A DNA stretch of 64,000 nt from a virus. Made by a program: the position numbers and the translations under genes. Below are positions 14,587 to 23,343 of the stretch, piece by piece (within the stretch, counting starts at the first letter, position 1; each line of letters starts with the position of its first letter). The DNA is taken from IMG/VR virus record IMGVR_UViG_3300037606_000137, positions 46,381 through 110,380 of that record, one strand, 5' to 3'. The notes under the pieces are model-generated. The model was given only the letters and a program-made list of their open reading frames with translations. It was not told the origin of the DNA and did no database searches.

Positions 14587-15510
14587 ATGTCAAAATTTAA
14601 CATTCATGCAAAATTAACAATAATTGAACAGGATTCAATTGATAAATATTTACAAGAATTGCGTTTAGATAAAACAACTACGCCGTTATCTCGAGCTGAA
14701 CAAAATAGTTTATTTAGTCAATACAAAATGACAGGTGACAAACTAATTAAAGATCGTTTAATTAAATCAAATTTACGATGGGTTATATCTGTTGCAAAAC
14801 AATATACTTATACAAAAGTTAAATTAGCAGATTTAATTAATGAAGGAAATATTGGTATGATTGAAGCAATAGATAAATTTGATGTTTCTCGAGAAACGTC
14901 ATTTATTACATTTGCGACAAATTACATTAGATTAGCTATAACATCATATATTAATGACGTTGCTGTAGATATTCCACAACCAGCTAATCGTTTTAGAATT
15001 AATCGTTTAATTAAAAAAGCATTATTAGATTTAAAAATATGTGGAAACAATACACCATCAGATTATCAATTAGTTGAATATTATGCATCAATTAAAAAAC
15101 AATGTGATCCAATTTTAAGTGTTTCATTATTGAATGAAGTAAGAAACAATTCTAAAGATTTTGTATCAATGCATACAAGTGTATCATCTAGTAGTGAAGA
15201 TTATGAATTAATTGATACATTTAAATCTTCAAAAGAATGGAATGCAGATTTTGAAATGGAAAAAACTGAAAAAACAAATATTTTAAATGAATATTTAAAA
15301 AAACATTTAAATGAGCGTGAATTAGAAATTATAACAATGTCATTTGGTTTAATCACACAACTGTCAATGACAAATGAAGAAATTTCATTTCGAACAGGAT
15401 ATACTCGTGAAAGAGTTGGACAAATCATAAAAGAAGGTGTTAAAAAATTAAGTAAAAATAAAAACATTTTAAATGGTTTAAGTGAAACAAACTATAGCAT
15501 TGTTTCTTAA
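14587..15510 (+). CDS. Sigma-70 family factor (RpoD/RpoS-like)
   Basis: SNLRWVISVAKQY, DLINEGNIGMIEAIDKFD and region-4 TRERVGQI. Confidence 0.92.
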   Translation: MSKFNIHAKLTIIEQDSIDKYLQELRLDKTTTPLSRAEQNSLFSQYKMTGDKLIKDRLIKSNLRWVISVAKQYTYTKVKLADLINEGNIGMIEAIDKFDVSRETSFITFATNYIRLAITSYINDVAVDIPQPANRFRINRLIKKALLDLKICGNNTPSDYQLVEYYASIKKQCDPILSVSLLNEVRNNSKDFVSMHTSVSSSSEDYELIDTFKSSKEWNADFEMEKTEKTNILNEYLKKHLNERELEIITMSFGLITQLSMTNEEISFRTGYTRERVGQIIKEGVKKLSKNKNILNGLSETNYSIVS

Positions 15511-15524
15511 AAAAATAAAATAAT

Positions 15525-15553
15525 AAACCCCACACTTTTATGTGTGGGGTTTA
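15525..15553 (+). terminator. Hairpin terminator
   Basis: AAACCCCACAC-tttta-TGTGTGGGGTTT. Confidence 0.65.
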
Positions 15554-15586
15554 ATTTATATAATTGTTTAGATATTAAAAAAATAT

Positions 15587-16072
15587 ATGGAGAGTAATTA
15601 TACTGATTGTTTACAATATATACCAGATTTAAAAAAATATGTTAAAAAATGTGTAGGCGGAAGTGAATGGGAAGATGTTGTACAAGATACATTGTTATAT
15701 TTATTTTTAAAGTATGATAATATTAATGTTACAAATGTTAAAGGTTTATTAATAAATACATCACTATTTTTTATAAAAAAACATTTATCATATAATAGTA
15801 AAGTAAATACGTGTGAAATTAATGATACAAATATTATTATAGATTATAATAATGCAAATATTAAAATTGGAAAATATAATTCTATTTTAATAGATGATAC
15901 ATTATTTAATAATATTAATAGAGTATCAAAATCTTTATTTATACCATTCCAAATGCAATTAAATGGTAAATCTATAGAAAGTATAGCTAAAGTATTAAAA
16001 ATAAATGAAAACACTATTAAAACACGAATAAGACGGTGTAAGTCTGTATTAAGAGAAAATATAATATTATGA
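15587..16072 (+). CDS. ECF-type sigma factor-like protein
   Basis: WEDVVQDTLL (region 2) and GKSIESIAKVLKINENTIKTRIRR (region 4 HTH). Confidence 0.8.
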   Translation: MESNYTDCLQYIPDLKKYVKKCVGGSEWEDVVQDTLLYLFLKYDNINVTNVKGLLINTSLFFIKKHLSYNSKVNTCEINDTNIIIDYNNANIKIGKYNSILIDDTLFNNINRVSKSLFIPFQMQLNGKSIESIAKVLKINENTIKTRIRRCKSVLRENIIL

Positions 16073-16962
16073 ATAATAAATTAAAATTAGATGATCGTAT
16101 GAAACAATACGAACATATTAATAGAAACTATTTAATTCCTAACATGTATAATGTTATTCGTTTAGATGGTAAAGCTTTTCATACATATACAAAGCAATTT
16201 ATTAAACCATTTGATGATGTATTTATTAATGCAATGAATGAAACTGCAAAATATATATGTGAAACAATGCAAGGTGCAAAATTTGCTTTTGTACAAAGTG
16301 ATGAAATATCTATATATTTTACAGATACTGATAACCATGAACAACAATTATGGTTTGGTGGTAATATACAAAAAATAGTATCAGTAGCAGCATCTAAAGC
16401 AGCAGCAAAATTTAACCAAATTATATTTTTACATAATTCAAAATCTACAATAGAAGAATTACAACAACTACAATTAGCCGAATTTGATGCTCGCGTTTTT
16501 CAATTACCAAACAAACATGAATTATTAAATTGTTTTATTTGGAGACAAGAAGATTGTATTAGAAATAGTGTATCTACTGTAGCACAATATTTTTATTCTA
16601 CAAAAGAATTACATAAAAAAACAGTAAAAGATATGAAAACTATGCTACTTGAAAGTGGTAGAGCATGGGAAAATTATAATTCAAAATATAAAAATGGTAG
16701 ATTTATTTCTAAAGAAATTTATATAAATGATATTTTAGTTGGTGATAATGAAACAGAAATTCGGTACCAACCAGATAATGAAGGTATTTTTAAATCTAAA
16801 TATGGTAGAGCATTACAATTAAACACGTCTGAAAATGATGAAATTGATTGGTGTGATATTAAAATTAAAAAAATGAGATCTTTTTGGAATATTTCTAATG
16901 CTAATATATTTTTAAACGTTAGAGAAACATTAATAAAAAAATATTTTCATAATGATAAATAA
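16069..16962 (+). CDS. Thg1-like tRNA(His) guanylyltransferase / 3'-5' polymerase
   Basis: IRLDGKAFHTYT, FVQSDEIS, FDARVF, WRQEDCIRNSV. Confidence 0.92.
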   Translation: MNNKLKLDDRMKQYEHINRNYLIPNMYNVIRLDGKAFHTYTKQFIKPFDDVFINAMNETAKYICETMQGAKFAFVQSDEISIYFTDTDNHEQQLWFGGNIQKIVSVAASKAAAKFNQIIFLHNSKSTIEELQQLQLAEFDARVFQLPNKHELLNCFIWRQEDCIRNSVSTVAQYFYSTKELHKKTVKDMKTMLLESGRAWENYNSKYKNGRFISKEIYINDILVGDNETEIRYQPDNEGIFKSKYGRALQLNTSENDEIDWCDIKIKKMRSFWNISNANIFLNVRETLIKKYFHNDK

Positions 16963-17347: not shown

Positions 17348-17656
17348 ATGAAAATAATAATAGATAATGATGGTGATGCAATTTTCTTACATAAAGAAAA
17401 TATTAAGAGTATTTCAAAAATAAAAAGTAATAGTTCTTATCTTTATTTTAATGTTAATTGGATAGATGGAGCAGAGAATTCATTTATTTTTGAATATTCA
17501 AATTATGATATGGATAAAGATATTTTATTAAATAAAATATCAAAAATACGTTTAGATATACTTAGTGATTTAAATGGTGGAATTAATCCTGAAATAATGT
17601 TTCCGGAAATTAATTTAAAAAAAGAAATTAAATTAACTACTCATCCAAATATATAA
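17348..17656 (+). CDS. Hypothetical protein
   Basis: ORF in a co-oriented run. Confidence 0.5.
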   Translation: MKIIIDNDGDAIFLHKENIKSISKIKSNSSYLYFNVNWIDGAENSFIFEYSNYDMDKDILLNKISKIRLDILSDLNGGINPEIMFPEINLKKEIKLTTHPNI

Positions 17657-17692
17657 AATAAATATATAAAATAAATAAATAAATAAATAAAT

Positions 17693-18097
17693 ATGGACGT
17701 TTTCCTTGGTGGTACATGTAATAATTCTGAATGGAGAGATGAATTAATACCTTTATTAAATTGTGATTATTTTAATCCTGTTGTAGATGATTGGACAGAA
17801 GATGCACAAAAATTAGAATTACAAAAACGCATAGAATGTGATTTTGTGCTTTATGTAATAACACCAAAAATGACTGGTGTGTATTCATTAGTCGAAGCTA
17901 CAGATGATTCAAATAAGAGACCACAAAGAACTATATTTTGTGTTCTTACAAATGATGATGGTAACGAATTTACAGAATCACAATTAAAGTCATTAGAAAT
18001 GACAAAAAATTTAATTAGAAATAATAATGCTAGAGTTTTTGATACGTTACAAGATATTGCAAGTTTTTTAAATTATATGAATTTGGTACCAAATTAA
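17693..18097 (+). CDS. Nucleoside 2-deoxyribosyltransferase-like protein
   Basis: VFLGGTCNNSEWRDELIP...FNPVVDDWT...GVYSLVE. Confidence 0.75.
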   Translation: MDVFLGGTCNNSEWRDELIPLLNCDYFNPVVDDWTEDAQKLELQKRIECDFVLYVITPKMTGVYSLVEATDDSNKRPQRTIFCVLTNDDGNEFTESQLKSLEMTKNLIRNNNARVFDTLQDIASFLNYMNLVPN

Positions 18098-18164
18098 ACT
18101 TAATTGTTTTTATTCTGTATAATAATTCTAAATAACAAAAATAAAAAGAATTAAAATTATTATT

Positions 18165-18335
18165 ATGGACAAGAATCAAATTTTTACAGAATTAGAAACA
18201 TTATGGGAAGCATTTAAAGCAGAACATGAATCAACAAAGAAAATTGCAGGTGGTAGAGCTAGAAAAGCAATTGGTGAAATGAAAAAATTAGTTACACCTT
18301 ACCGTCAAGCATCTGTTGAAGCAGGAAAATTATAA
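18165..18335 (+). CDS. Small histone-H1-like (Hc1-type) DNA-binding protein, 56 aa; not in the ORF track
   Basis: MDKNQIFTELETLWEAFKAEHESTKKIAGGRARKAIGEMKKLVTPYRQASVEAGKL; the AGxRARKA...K...YRxxS pattern matches Bacteroidota/Chlamydia Hc1-like proteins. Confidence 0.7.
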   Translation: MDKNQIFTELETLWEAFKAEHESTKKIAGGRARKAIGEMKKLVTPYRQASVEAGKL

Positions 18336-18431
18336 AAAATAAATAAAAATTTTTATATATCAAAATAAATTCTTATATTTGTTTTGTAAAAGTAAAAAGG
18401 GAAGAAAAAAAATTAATATATACAATTAAGA

Positions 18432-18591
18432 ATGAAAAATTTATCAAACATATTAGTGGATCGTTATTATGATCGTGAACCGGAGAGATTACTTGGGACT
18501 AACAATGTTATGTGTAAATTTTAATTATTAAAAAGATATTAAATTTTTAAACAAATAACTGAAAAGTCCCTTAGCAATAAGGGACTTTTTT
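18432..18591 (+). promoter_or_regulatory. Putative attenuator 1: leader ORF 18432..18524 (MKNLSNILVDRYYDREPERLLGTNNVMCKF) with antiterminator and terminator ahead of the tRNA cluster
   Basis: GGGACT (18495..18500) is complementary to AGTCCC in the 5' arm of the terminator. Leader codons match the downstream tRNAs. Confidence 0.7.
18562..18591 (+). terminator. Intrinsic terminator 14 nt before tRNA-Glu
   Basis: AAAAGTCCCTTA-GCAA-TAAGGGACTTTT followed by T residues. Confidence 0.9.
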
Positions 18592-18605
18592 ATTTTAAAT
18601 CATAT

Positions 18606-18677
18606 GCTCCTATCGTCTAACGGTCAGGACTCTACCTTTTCAAGGTAGCAATGAGAGTTCGATTCTCTCTGGGAGTA
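18606..18677 (+). tRNA. tRNA-Glu(TTC)
   Basis: Acceptor GCTCCTA/TGGGAGT, anticodon arm CTACC-TTTTCAA-GGTAG, T arm GAGAG-TTCGATT-CTCTC. Confidence 0.92.
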
Positions 18678-18759
18678 CAAAAAATAAATTGTAGTGTACA
18701 ATAGGTGAAATTTGTATATGAATGGTAAGACAGCTCGAGACTGTATTTATTTTTTTTAA

Positions 18760-18839
18760 CTAGATGCTTGAGCAGTTGGTTGAACTCGCCTGTTTTGGGA
18801 ACAGGAGCATTTGCGTAGGTTCGAATCCTACCATCTAGA
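18760..18839 (+). tRNA. tRNA-Pro(TGG), atypical D/variable region
   Basis: Acceptor CTAGATG/CATCTAG, anticodon arm CCTGT-TTTGGGA-ACAGG, T arm GTAGG-TTCGAAT-CCTAC. Confidence 0.85.
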
Positions 18840-19035
18840 CATAAATTATTGATAACAAACAAGTTACAATAAAAAATATATTTACTAGTAATGTTTAGTA
18901 AATTAAAGATAATAGTTGGATAATGAAAATATGAGCTGTAACTTGTATAATAGTAATTATAAGCTAGAATATAGAAATGATATAATATTTAAGTATTATT
19001 ACAGTAAGAAAGAATTAAATTGAATTGAAGTATTT

Positions 19036-19110
19036 TTTATGTGTGGTGTAATTGGATAGGCACGCTTGCGTTGAGTGAGTAGATTATTGGTTCGAATCCA
19101 ATACATGAAA
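19036..19110 (+). tRNA. Degenerate tRNA-like element, identity unresolved
   Basis: Acceptor TTTATGT/ACATGAA, D arm GTGT-AATTGGATAG-GCAC and a perfect T arm, but an abnormal anticodon arm. Confidence 0.5.
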
Positions 19111-19120
19111 CAAAAAATAA

Positions 19121-19191
19121 GGTCCATTGGTGAAATGGTATCATGACTCACTGTCTATGAGTTGTCGTCGGATCGTAACCGGCATGGACCG
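19121..19191 (+). tRNA. tRNA-Asp(GTC)
   Basis: Acceptor GGTCCAT/ATGGACC, anticodon arm ACTCA-CTGTCTA-TGAGT, variant T loop ATCGTAA. Confidence 0.85.
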
Positions 19192-19217
19192 CTAAAGAAA
19201 CAAAAATAATAAAATAA

Positions 19218-19290
19218 GGTCCTGTAGCACAATTGGTAGTGTAACTTGTTGTCTGCGAGATGGTTGACGGTTCGAATCCGTTCAGGACCG
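19218..19290 (+). tRNA. tRNA-Asp(GTC), second divergent copy
   Basis: Acceptor GGTCCTG/CAGGACC, anticodon loop TTGTCTG, T arm GACGG-TTCGAAT-CCGTT. Confidence 0.82.
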
Positions 19291-19386
19291 CAATAAACTG
19301 AGTTAGTGTACTACAAGTTCGAAACTTGTGATCTTGACAAAAAAAAATTAAAAAAGATGAAAAAAATAATAGTAAATAAAAATGTA

Positions 19387-19506
19387 ATGATAAGTGTAAG
19401 AAATATTTCTTATTCATATTATTATAACTTATTGAAATCTCAATGAGACTGAAATTGTATTTTAACAAATTTTAAGTCCTATTGAGAAATCAGTAGGACT
19501 TTTTTT
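19387..19506 (+). promoter_or_regulatory. Putative attenuator 2: Tyr-rich leader ORF 19387..19446 (MISVRNISYSYYYNLLKSQ) with antiterminator and terminator directly before tRNA-Tyr
   Basis: TCTCAATGAGACT (19438..19450, contains the leader stop) pairs at 12 of 13 positions with AGTCCTATTGAGA of the terminator 5' arm and loop. Confidence 0.8.
19474..19506 (+). terminator. Intrinsic terminator 4 nt before tRNA-Tyr
   Basis: AAGTCCTATTGA-GAAA-TCAGTAGGACTT plus T-run. Confidence 0.9.
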
Positions 19507-19510
19507 ATAA

Positions 19511-19553
19511 CCGACAGTATGCAAGTGGTTAAAGCAGGGGGATTGTAAATCCT
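19511..19553 (+). tRNA. tRNA-Tyr(GTA), 5' part of an interrupted gene
   Basis: CCGACAG acceptor strand, D arm TGC-AAGTGGTTAAA-GCA, anticodon arm GGGGA-TTGTAAA-TCCT. Confidence 0.85.
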
Positions 19554-19598
19554 GTTACAGTCAATTCGAATTTAATATATAAAGATAAAAAACTATAT

Positions 19599-20138
19599 AT
19601 GTGTGATTTGAAAAAATGTGAAAATTGTGATAACGATCATAATGGTGATTATGGAAGTGGAAGATTCTGTTCGAATAAATGTGCTAGAGGATTCTCAACC
19701 AAAAATAAACGAAAAGAAATAAATAAAAAAGTAAGTAATACATTACAGTTAAAATTAAATAATGGATTAACAACACAACAAGTAATACAAAAAAAATATG
19801 CAGCTAAACACGCTTCTTATATTAGAGAAACTGAAATAACTACATTATATGATTTAAGTACACGTACAATAAGTAAAATATTAAAAAGATTAAAATTACC
19901 ATGTTCATTATGTAAATGGTATGTTGAAGATGTTGTTGGTGATTTACATCATATAATAGAAAGAAAAAATGGTGGTTCAAACAATCATGATAATTTAACA
20001 TATGTATGTCCTAATTGTCATAGATTAATTCATTCTAATAAAATAGATAATAGTAAAATAATAAATCTTAAAGATTATATTGGTGACGAATGGAAAAAAT
20101 ATTATTATGTAATCAATAAAAAATTAATAAACAAATAA
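19599..20138 (+). CDS. HNH endonuclease inserted in tRNA-Tyr
   Basis: CSLC...HHIIERKNGGSNNHDNLTYVCPNCHRLIH and an N-terminal Zn motif (RFCSNKCA); TAATATATA box at 19573. Confidence 0.9.
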   Translation: MCDLKKCENCDNDHNGDYGSGRFCSNKCARGFSTKNKRKEINKKVSNTLQLKLNNGLTTQQVIQKKYAAKHASYIRETEITTLYDLSTRTISKILKRLKLPCSLCKWYVEDVVGDLHHIIERKNGGSNNHDNLTYVCPNCHRLIHSNKIDNSKIINLKDYIGDEWKKYYYVINKKLINK

Positions 20139-20142
20139 TTTG

Positions 20143-20185
20143 TTCTCTTCGGAGTTCGTAAGTTCAAATCTTACCTGTCGGACCA
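20143..20185 (+). tRNA. tRNA-Tyr, 3' part with encoded CCA
   Basis: Variable arm CTC-TTCG-GAG, T arm GTAAG-TTCAAAT-CTTAC, then CTGTCGG-A-CCA, perfectly complementary to CCGACAG at 19511. Confidence 0.88.
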
Positions 20186-20351
20186 CAACAATTTTAAGTT
20201 GTACTTCTAATTTTATTAAATTAAAACATAAATATGTTGATGTATTTTTGTTTTAATTTTTTTGTTTATATAATTGTATTCATAACAATTTAAACAAAGT
20301 TAAACAATTCATATATAATACTATAGAAAATATAGTAAATATAGTAAAGCT

Positions 20352-20885
20352 ATGGGAACAATAAAAGATTATATACAAGAAAGAATAACATTAAATCATT
20401 TACCTTTAAATATTAATGAATGTTTAGCTGTTATAGAAACATATGAAACAATATATTCTAATGTTTCAGAGAAAGAACGTTTTTTTTTATTTATCAAAAA
20501 TAAAGTTGGAGAAATACTAACAAATATTGATGAAGATTTGTCTGAAATTTTAGGATGGTTACATGTACATAAAAGTAAACAAGATATAGTTTATTTTTTA
20601 TTTGAAACCGAAGAAGATTATTATAATTGGTTAAGTGTTCGTAAAGATTTATATTTACAATTAAATGAAGATTACACAAGATTATTAAATTTTTTAGAAT
20701 TATCGACTATGGATTTCATTTCTGATATAACTACTAATTGTAATTATATCTTAGAATTAAAAAATAAAAAAACAGATTTTAAAAAAGAAGGATATGGTGT
20801 TGATGTTGAATCAACAATATCATTCATTAAATACTTAGGTGCATCATTTAAAAAAGGATATAACTTTAAACCAACAAAAATATGA
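20352..20885 (+). CDS. Hypothetical protein
   Basis: 177-aa ORF, ATGA-coupled to the next gene. Confidence 0.6.
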   Translation: MGTIKDYIQERITLNHLPLNINECLAVIETYETIYSNVSEKERFFLFIKNKVGEILTNIDEDLSEILGWLHVHKSKQDIVYFLFETEEDYYNWLSVRKDLYLQLNEDYTRLLNFLELSTMDFISDITTNCNYILELKNKKTDFKKEGYGVDVESTISFIKYLGASFKKGYNFKPTKI

Positions 20886-21145
20886 AAATAAAATTTTTGT
20901 TTTTCAATACTTTTGATAGTACCGAACCATGTGATATTAAAATACTTTCTGGTAATAGTTTAAAAGAAATACTTTCAGATAATTATACTATTAATGATAC
21001 ACATTATAACGATTATAATGATATAGAAAAAACATTATTAAATGGTGGTAAAGTTGTACTTGATGAATCATCTGATAAATCAGATGATCCACAATTTTGG
21101 CATGAAGACGATTGGATTATAAAAATAGAAATAATAGAAATATGA
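20882..21145 (+). CDS. Hypothetical protein
   Basis: ATGA coupling. Confidence 0.55.
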   Translation: MKIKFLFFNTFDSTEPCDIKILSGNSLKEILSDNYTINDTHYNDYNDIEKTLLNGGKVVLDESSDKSDDPQFWHEDDWIIKIEIIEI

Positions 21146-22308: not shown

Positions 22309-23343
22309 ATGAAAAAACTTTTAATAAGTATAATGTTCATAATTTCTGTATTTACAGTAATTGGGCAAATAATATATAGTTGGACACCTAATGTAAATCC
22401 AGGTTGGACATCAAGTAATCCATCAGTAAGTACGTTAGGTTGGCAATCTGTTGCTAATATTGTATCTACATCTGACCAAGTTGTAATAAATGGTGGGTGG
22501 TATACATATGATGATTCACAAATAACAACATATACTAGTCCATTAATTAATACAACCTGTTTATTATCTAGTGCTGTTGTAATAAATTTCACTTTAGATA
22601 TAAATTTAGAAAACCGAAGGGATTGGTTATATTTTCAATATTCATCAGATGGTGGAACAACATGGTTAAATCCTGTAGTTACTAGTGGTTCTATTAATAA
22701 TTCTTTTGTAAATTTATCACCATTTCTACCTTTAACAGCATGGGTTAATAATAATTCAAACAGAAATGGTTGGACTAATAATATAGGGGTTATAAATTTA
22801 AGTTATACAATACCATCGTCTATTAATTCAAGATTTAGATTTATTTTTGCTTCGAACTTCGCTGTTAATACATATGGGTCAAATTTTATATATTATGCTG
22901 ATATTTCTGTTTTCCGTATATTATGTACAACACAGTTACCCATTGAGCTTATTGATTTTGTTGGATATAATGAAATTGATAATGTATTAGAATGGGAAAC
23001 AGCTACCGAAAAAAATAATGATTATTTTACATTAGAACATTCAGAAAATGGTACTGATTGGAATATAATCGGTAGAGTTGATGGTAAAGGTGATTCACAA
23101 TCAAAACAATCATATAATTTTAAACATCAAGATTTTAAATTTATAACAAATTATTATAAATTAAGTCAAACAGATTTTGATGGTGTTGTAAGAATATATA
23201 ATAATCATGTAGCAATTAACAACACACAAGGCTTTAAACACATAGTTAGAGTTATTAATTTATTAGGTCAAACAGTTGATATAAATACAACAGGTGTAAA
23301 GATTGTTATATACAGTGATGGAACAATTAAAAAAATAATGTAA
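22309..23343 (+). CDS. Secreted Bacteroidota-type protein with Ig-like domain and T9SS-CTD-like tail
   Basis: Signal peptide ending in GQ; LPIELIDF...LEWETATEKNNDYFTLEHSENG...YYKLSQTDFDG; C-terminal NLLGQTV...YSDGTIKKI. Confidence 0.75.
   Translation: MKKLLISIMFIISVFTVIGQIIYSWTPNVNPGWTSSNPSVSTLGWQSVANIVSTSDQVVINGGWYTYDDSQITTYTSPLINTTCLLSSAVVINFTLDINLENRRDWLYFQYSSDGGTTWLNPVVTSGSINNSFVNLSPFLPLTAWVNNNSNRNGWTNNIGVINLSYTIPSSINSRFRFIFASNFAVNTYGSNFIYYADISVFRILCTTQLPIELIDFVGYNEIDNVLEWETATEKNNDYFTLEHSENGTDWNIIGRVDGKGDSQSKQSYNFKHQDFKFITNYYKLSQTDFDGVVRIYNNHVAINNTQGFKHIVRVINLLGQTVDINTTGVKIVIYSDGTIKKIM

Follow-up and report, generated by a model that had tools for sequence, protein, structure and literature searches.

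Putative leader-peptide attenuators upstream of transfer RNA genes in an uncultured giant phage

Leader-terminator units in a phage tRNA island

We studied a transfer RNA (tRNA) island within a window of 64,000 nucleotides (nt), i.e., bases 46381-110380 of a 110-kb IMG/VR viral contig (IMGVR_UViG_3300037606_000137) from an uncultured giant phage. In this island, two units (B and C) each place a short open reading frame (sORF) and an intrinsic terminator directly before tRNA genes. We consider it likely that both are ribosome-mediated transcription attenuators (leader-peptide control of the trp/his type) of these phage tRNA genes. That is, the phage probably makes the tRNAs only when ribosomes read the matching codons slowly. 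The argument builds on the anatomy of the units, their conservation, a codon/tRNA correlation that extends over a whole family of leaders, and alternative pairings that co-vary with each terminator. An attenuator of this type had been proposed from the letters of the window (in the following, the sequence-only reading), and the proposal is strongly supported by a third unit on the same contig (unit A), a related contig (L009), about 20 further units from other phages and the specificity of the terminator arms. The contig has a GC content of 23.5% and an estimated completeness of 28%; it is therefore a fragment of a very large phage.

Unit B and the tRNA genes behind it are composed as follows (window positions).

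18374-18431, plus strand: promoter-like block and A-rich 5' untranslated region, with TATATTTG, AAAAAG and TTAATATATA in this order
18432-18524, plus strand: leader sORF B, 30 codons, with the prefix MKNLSNI common to the family
18459-18488, plus strand: regulatory run D-R-Y-Y-D-R-E-P-E-R, codons 10-19 of sORF B
18494-18501, plus strand: segment 2 (antiterminator), pairs with the terminator 5' arm
18561-18596, plus strand: intrinsic terminator; stem-loop at 18561-18590 with a 13-base-pair (bp) stem and a 4-nt loop, then a T tract
18606-18678, plus strand: tRNA-Glu (UUC), ARAGORN; Rfam 60 bits
18760-18840, plus strand: tRNA-Pro (UGG), ARAGORN; Rfam 40.3 bits
19036-19111, plus strand: doubtful tRNA-like element, called Gln (UUG) by ARAGORN in default mode only
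19121-19192, plus strand: tRNA-Asp (GUC) copy 1, ARAGORN; Rfam 48.1 bits
19218-19291, plus strand: tRNA-Asp (GUC) copy 2, ARAGORN; Rfam 53 bits

Unit C follows on the same strand.

19357-19446, plus strand: leader sORF C, 29 codons, with Y-S-Y-Y-Y (four TAT codons) at 19411-19425
19428-19435, plus strand: segment 1, directly after the Tyr run; forms an 8-bp local hairpin with segment 2
19437-19451, plus strand: segment 2 (antiterminator), spans the stop codon and is complementary to the terminator 5' arm
19474-19508, plus strand: intrinsic terminator; 12-bp stem (19474-19501), 4-nt loop, T7 tract
19511-20185, plus strand: tRNA-Tyr (GUA), split by an insertion of ~594 nt; ARAGORN intron mode only
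19599-20138, plus strand: HNH endonuclease ORF inside tRNA-Tyr, intact; Pfam HNH 2e-7, PHROG HNH families

The sequence-only reading had described two short ORFs, each before a strong intrinsic terminator just upstream of a tRNA, as well as a segment in each leader that is complementary to the terminator's 5' arm. Both were found, i.e., the sORFs at 18432-18524 and 19357-19446 and their segments 2. Among the downstream tRNAs it had named, Glu, Pro and the two Asp copies were recovered by ARAGORN and Rfam. tRNA-Tyr is detected only in the intron mode of ARAGORN because ~594 nt with an HNH gene interrupt it.

The terminator hairpin of unit B has an energy of -17.2 kcal/mol (z -5.7), and tRNA-Glu starts (18606) 15 nt past its stem. 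Within segment 2, GGGACT (18495-18500) is complementary to AGTCCC of the terminator 5' arm; its alternative partners are CCGGAG and the 5' part of the sORF. The duplex of segment 2 and arm reaches -10.9 kcal/mol, a value matched by 48/1000 dinucleotide shuffles. In the regulatory run, 7/10 codons are cognate to the downstream Glu, Pro, Asp and Tyr tRNAs. The run also contains an internal 6-bp hairpin (GATCGT/ATGATC) and segment 1 (CCGGAG), both of which are part of the consensus fold described below. This hairpin may be the reason for the Arg codons in the run. The seven-residue N-terminal prefix is shared with other leaders, and we therefore placed sORF B in their family. The composite promoter motif has 2 occurrences in the 110-kb contig, each before an sORF-terminator-tRNA unit, and is kept in L009.

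Unit C is positioned behind unit B and is without a promoter block of its own. It has the full classical set of segments with pairings 1:2, 2:3 and 3:4, where segments 3 and 4 constitute the terminator. The terminator hairpin has -16.4 kcal/mol (z -6.5), and tRNA-Tyr starts (19511) 9 nt past its stem. Folding of 19357-19452, which yields the hairpin of segments 1 and 2, results in a z of -4.1. The duplex of segment 2 with the terminator arm reaches -13.8 kcal/mol, for which 0/1000 dinucleotide shuffles are as good. Among 21 leaders, the unit's own segment 2 is the best binder of its arm. Intrinsic-terminator-like sites are rare, with 7 in 8 kb versus 0.8 expected from shuffles.

The clearest unit lies outside the window, 17 kb before it.

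G000:C1 29174-28090, minus strand: unit A, whole unit
29080-29003 (genome positions), minus strand: sORF of 25 codons; codons 2-16 are limited to K, N, F, H and W
28967-28936 (genome positions), minus strand: terminator with a 14-bp stem

Its promoter block is the same as that of unit B, and the terminator is followed by a Trp-like tRNA (14 nt after the terminator) and by tRNAs for Asn, Phe, His, Lys and Lys. The Trp-like tRNA (28921-28848, minus strand) has an 8-nt anticodon loop, for which ARAGORN reads 'ccaa', i.e., Trp or Leu. This expanded loop could reflect altered decoding or decay. A leader homologous to that of unit A in contig L170 is followed by a normal tRNA-Trp(CCA).

Codon content of the leaders matches the downstream tRNAs

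The claim that leader codons match the downstream tRNAs holds to different degrees: strongly across the family, modestly for leader C and weakly for leader B taken alone. For leader B, 7/19 codons match (P 0.13), and the best 12-codon window gives P 0.056. Leader C shows four Tyr in 25 codons (P 0.044; best-window P 0.015, i.e., modest), and its other reading frames match in 1/25 only. Within unit A, 15/17 leader codons match the downstream tRNAs (P 1.8e-7).

At the family level, we compared the true pairing of leaders and tRNA sets with permuted ones, with each family represented by a single member. In both of two alternative member sets, the true pairing scores highest among 720 permutations. 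For a third, independently found set, 0/20000 random re-pairings reach the observed score. The match is lost when the same nucleotides of the family sets are read in the other two frames.

Unit B is conserved in a related phage contig

The related contig, L009, is 6.6 kb long and encodes a Thg1 with 55% identity to that of the window. It is syntenic with the region of unit B, i.e., an Hc1-like gene, the promoter block, the sORF and the terminator are followed by tRNA-Pro and tRNA-Glu. The sORF shows 83% nucleotide identity, compared to 74-75% for three flanking coding sequences and 65-69% for the tRNAs. A single indel of 3 nt keeps the frame, with the stop in register. There is no difference in the 27 nt that encode D-R-Y-Y-D-R-E-P-E, and L009 also retains the GGGACT segment. 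In L009, the duplex of segment 2 and arm is an 8-bp version, for which 2/1000 shuffles are as good. A search with the 23-nt core of leader B returned L009 only.

The RNAalifold consensus of unit B and its L009 counterpart comprises 43 pairs, with 0 broken and 4 compensated on both sides. Two of the compensatory pairs are located in the terminator stem and two in a long protector helix that closes the sORF on itself. In this closed form of leader B, the pairing CCGGAG:CTTGG sequesters segment 2.

Both phages carry homing endonuclease genes that are reshaping their tRNA regions. In L009 (4056-5578), a GIY-YIG endonuclease gene on the opposite strand separates a full deoxyribosyltransferase-like gene from a duplicate of its C-terminal fragment, and a homologue of the HNH gene from the window's tRNA-Tyr directly follows tRNA-Glu.

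Further units in other phage contigs

Further units were sought in three ways, each with a seed other than the codon/tRNA match. The first search covered the surroundings of Thg1 homologues in unrelated large phages (80 loci) and listed every terminator at most 80 nt upstream of a tRNA. Two matches turned out to be T arms of preceding tRNAs; the remaining 5/5 real terminators all follow an sORF that lists the downstream tRNAs. For instance, a run of W, P, Y and C precedes Tyr, Pro, Pro, Trp and Cys tRNAs, and a run of H, S, I and T precedes Ser, His, Thr, Thr, Ser, Ile and Ile tRNAs. The second search used the promoter block alone as a pattern in viral_contigs and returned 8 stretches, 4/8 of which are tRNA leaders of 3 types, with 2 of these being additional. 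Using the first 21 nt of the sORF as a pattern, the third search resulted in 79 short ORFs. A tRNA is found close behind 22 of them; these comprise 10 different types of leader, and every type is enriched for its respective tRNA set. Altogether, about 20 or more further units with the sORF-terminator-tRNA layout are present in other phage contigs.

Elsewhere in the family, a single leader can list as many as 12 amino acids. The N-terminal prefix of the family reads M-K-N-L/F-x-N/K-I/H and is encoded by 21 near-identical nt (window 18432-18452; L110-L198) in phages of 21-43% GC. Beyond these seven residues, the leader peptides vary with the tRNA set. The prefix could originate from demands of translation initiation, from synchronisation with RNA polymerase or from common descent by duplication. 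One family member found with the promoter block, in L101 (3006-4501; also L099), has a leader that contains Y, K, F and W codons along with three for His. It gates a truncated histidyl-tRNA-synthetase-like gene of 207 amino acids (Pfam 1.2e-19), behind which stand tRNAs for Tyr, Phe, His and Trp and four for Lys.

Alternative pairings and the ribosome position in constrained folds

We evaluated the best duplex between each leader and its terminator 5' arm in ten units. It is among the top 5% of shuffles in 10/10 units and starts at codon 28 in unit C and within codons 15-22 in the nine others. By our reading of the coordinates, segment 2 starts 6-13 nt behind the last codon of the run. When the arms of 21 units are confronted with all leaders, the own leader ranks 1-3 of 21 for 17 terminator arms, and near-ties are homologues. 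Segment 2 therefore co-varies with its own terminator.

To assess the effect of the ribosome, we folded the nascent RNA as it is prior to synthesis of the 3' arm and constrained 30 nt to be unpaired in place of the ribosome. With the ribosome stalled in the middle of the run, the antiterminator forms in 10/10 units. With the ribosome at the stop codon, it is lost in 7/10 units, including units A, B and C. Segment 2 of unit B pairs with the arm only when the ribosome is stalled in the run, and unit C loses its antiterminator pairing when the ribosome is at the stop.

Proposed mechanism and its weighing

The units combine a leader ORF, a cognate codon run (at the family level), an intrinsic terminator and, in equilibrium folds, an antiterminator that depends on the ribosome position. 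From this, we propose the following course of events. The dedicated promoter block would start a short transcript, on which a ribosome translates the sORF of ~30 codons with its central run of codons that the downstream tRNAs decode. With an ample supply of the matching aminoacyl-tRNAs, the ribosome would reach the stop codon, such that segment 2 is masked or re-captured by segment 1 or the protector helix. With segment 2 unavailable, the terminator would form and transcription would end 9-15 nt before the first tRNA. A slow codon, on the other hand, would leave a stalled ribosome that keeps the upstream partner apart. Segment 2 could then pair with the terminator 5' arm and RNA polymerase would read into the tRNA genes. 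The tRNA products would relieve the stall, and the circuit would therefore be a negative-feedback supply controller.

In this scheme, unit B (18374-18596) would gate the Glu, Pro and two Asp tRNAs, and unit C (19357-19508) would add a second, Tyr-specific gate before tRNA-Tyr. The two-tier circuit suggested by the sequence-only reading is anatomically plausible in that unit C stands behind unit B and has no promoter block of its own. Its second tier is weakened by the split tRNA-Tyr, which is perhaps non-functional.

Several observations weigh against the attenuation reading. Taken alone, the codon match of unit B is not significant (P 0.06-0.13), three Arg codons of its leader have no cognate tRNA on the 28%-complete contig, and the doubtful Gln-like tRNA has no codon in the leader. 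RNA structure (the GATCGT/ATGATC hairpin) could account for the perfect conservation of 27 nt of the run just as well as codon identity. The tRNA-Tyr gated by unit C is interrupted and may be dead. Concerning the switch, 3/10 units keep the antiterminator with the ribosome at the stop (equilibrium fold), and the stop codon of several units is too far downstream to mask segment 2 directly. All folds are equilibrium folds, none co-transcriptional. That the sORFs are translated, that ribosomes stall and that read-through is regulated are steps that we infer. Finally, there may be internal promoters within the tRNA array.

Alternative explanations differ in what they make of the same anatomy. The attenuators may be real with counter-defence as their selected purpose, as the sequence-only reading had it: an anticodon nuclease would cleave a host tRNA, the ribosome would stall on the leader, and replacement tRNAs would be made. 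The tRNAs behind the units of the contig (Lys, Asn, His, Asp and Tyr) overlap with the classes known to be hit by anticodon nucleases, and a tRNA-repair-type gene (Thg1-like) is encoded 1.5 kb upstream. The anatomy expected is the same as for the attenuation reading we favour, and none of the computed results separates a nuclease trigger from a simple shortage caused by the phage's own codon demand at 23.5% GC or by host shut-off. We know of no anticodon nuclease that targets the tRNAs of as many as 12 amino acids, which is what other leaders list, and there is neither an RNA ligase nor RtcB on the (28% complete) contig. The same anatomy is explained by a plain feedback of supply and demand that acts on the availability of aminoacyl-tRNAs, and a general supply controller accounts for the long lists of up to 12 amino acids no less well than a nuclease trigger. 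We regard counter-defence as the selected purpose as unlikely. A wider version, in which the units constitute a modular, phage-borne surveillance of the tRNA pool, is doubtful as well; here, each tRNA block would have its own multi-amino-acid checklist, tRNAs depleted by defence systems would be replaced individually, and unit C would be a nested Tyr-only checkpoint.

It is very unlikely that the hairpins are ordinary or factor-controlled terminators, i.e., leaky insulators or temporal gates that a phage antiterminator protein opens, with incidental or structural sORFs. Such gates would be in line with the contig's own sigma factors just upstream and with the weak codon match of unit B alone, and the conserved long hairpin of leader B could serve as a recognition element for a protein or RNA polymerase. 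They leave unexplained why in-frame runs list the downstream tRNAs in more than 20 units, why the match is lost in other frames and why a segment of the sORF, at a fixed distance behind the run, co-varies with its own arm. The units might also be stand-alone small genes (for a peptide or a small RNA) next to separately transcribed tRNAs, given that each is a complete promoter-to-terminator cassette of ~200 nt and that weak, sub-threshold Rfam similarities to small RNAs overlap the terminator of unit B. The 9-16 nt between stem and first tRNA in the units of the contig are too short for a promoter, and no promoter block is found there. The peptides share nothing but the seven-residue prefix, with the rest varying with the tRNA set, unlike a functional peptide family. 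We judge this explanation to be highly improbable. Attenuation by leader peptides remains our preferred reading.

The split tRNA-Tyr

Nearly all of the insertion in tRNA-Tyr is taken by the HNH ORF (540 of 594 nt). The 3' part of the tRNA, from ~20143, provides the variable arm, the T arm and the acceptor strand. From an alignment by eye with intact Tyr tRNAs of other loci, the insertion is placed where the variable arm begins, with a TGTT microhomology common to both junctions. The 5' piece continues into a degenerate T-arm-like stretch. The 3' half has no match in viral_contigs.

A group I intron was considered and rejected. No Intron_gpI match is found with E <= 10 in 19480-20230 nor on the whole contig, and the insertion is located at the variable arm instead of the anticodon loop, where a group I intron is expected. 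There is also no RtcB or Rnl-type RNA ligase on the contig, at its completeness of 28%. Given that both the group I model match and the ligase are missing, unit C may therefore gate a disabled gene, or another maturation route exists.

Other elements of the tRNA island and its neighbourhood

The Gln-like element at 19036-19111 has a good acceptor stem and T arm, along with a poor D arm, a poor anticodon arm and stem, and a G at position 33. It is missing in ARAGORN's intron mode and without an Rfam tRNA match at E <= 1. We also inspected the 81-nt and 195-nt spacers as well as 19036-19111 for a hidden tRNA-Arg and found no acceptable cloverleaf and no Rfam match. Further degenerate tRNA-like pieces are located at contig positions 28250-28500 and 34100-34820. 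Immediately before tRNA-Pro, inside the operon of unit B, a weak 4-bp hairpin is followed by a long T-rich tract (18734-18758). The two may act as a processing site or as a weak internal terminator. A short, Tyr-rich ORF (18916-19023) in the spacer ahead of the doubtful tRNA includes a Y-Y-Y run and is not followed by a terminator. It may be a decayed leader or a product of chance in AT-rich DNA.

The genes around the tRNA island encode two sigma factors, a Thg1-like tRNA-His guanylyltransferase, a deoxyribosyltransferase-like protein, an Hc1-like histone and an NAD synthase. The two sigma-70-family genes and the Thg1-like gene (14587-16962) are found just upstream of the island. The leaders' promoter block is absent elsewhere on the contig, so that a phage sigma factor might drive it. 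A scan for sigma-70-type promoters is uninformative in this AT-rich DNA (84 sites versus 81 expected).

Within 17500-21000, an Rfam scan (cmscan, E <= 1) reports only tRNAs and three sub-threshold small RNA matches on the terminator. Neither the leader families (Trp_leader, His_leader, Thr_leader and the Leu and Phe leaders) nor T-box are matched there. BLAST matches to deposited phages are limited to the tRNAs and the HNH gene (~69% in Lak phages). Exact Thg1 peptide patterns have no match in viral_contigs. A search based on the Hc1-like neighbour returned only L009, a duplicate of L009 and non-syntenic loci. Proteins P0002-P0018 represent closer relatives from other assemblies. As a clue to the host, we sought a type IX secretion system (T9SS) sorting domain in the ORF at 22309-23343, for which Pfam gave no confirmation.

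Implications and comparison with known systems

Phage tRNA genes are usually regarded as passively expressed cargo. If the attenuation reading is true, large phages gauge the decoding speed codon by codon and top up only those tRNAs that are short, i.e., they run a self-limiting feedback on the translation apparatus itself. Leader-peptide attenuation would then reach a new class of targets (RNA genes) and a new host group (Bacteroidota-type phages), with a new logic of up to a dozen amino acids per leader. The units also provide a testable handle on the reason for phage tRNAs, be it codon demand, host shut-off or defence by tRNA cleavage, and the compact leaders of ~200 nt could act as reporters of specific tRNA supply.

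T4, T5 and jumbo phages have clusters of tRNA genes that compensate for host tRNA depletion or for a mismatch in codon usage. Like the island studied here, these clusters intersperse tRNA genes with homing endonuclease genes. Their expression is described as constitutive or temporal, and we found no codon-matched leader plus terminator per block in the published picture. A full-text literature search gave no description of leader-peptide attenuation of tRNA genes.

T-box riboswitches also read the charging status of tRNAs and switch between terminator and antiterminator upstream of translation-related genes. They bind the uncharged tRNA directly and without translation, have a conserved specifier loop and T-box sequence and are mainly found in Firmicutes. 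The phage units are without such an RNA (no Rfam match), and sensing would pass through the ribosome.

The pheST leader is an example of leader-peptide control of an aminoacyl-tRNA synthetase gene. Leader peptides with His codons are also found upstream of hisS paralogues in bacilli (PMC2965389); this broad survey of attenuators lists leader peptides for hisS paralogues and makes no mention of any for tRNA genes. As in the phage units, attenuation at synthetase genes senses the decoding of specific codons and controls translation supply, and the family member in L101 gates a truncated HisRS-like gene together with tRNAs including His. The known targets are protein genes in cellular genomes, whereas the phage units target tRNA genes.

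The leader-peptide attenuators that control amino-acid biosynthesis in enterobacteria (trpL, hisL, pheL, leuL, thrL, ilvL) share with the phage units a translated leader ORF, a run of regulatory codons, an intrinsic terminator before the genes and the exclusive pairings 1:2, 2:3 and 3:4 selected by the ribosome position; thrL and ilvL also have runs for multiple amino acids. In contrast, the phage units are phage-borne, have a Bacteroidota-type promoter motif and target tRNA genes instead of enzymes. Their leaders list 4-12 different amino acids, one per downstream tRNA, and feedback would act via tRNA supply and not via amino-acid synthesis. There is no sequence homology between the two and no match to an Rfam leader family. 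The class of mechanism is known; its target, its carrier and its form as a multi-amino-acid checklist are new.

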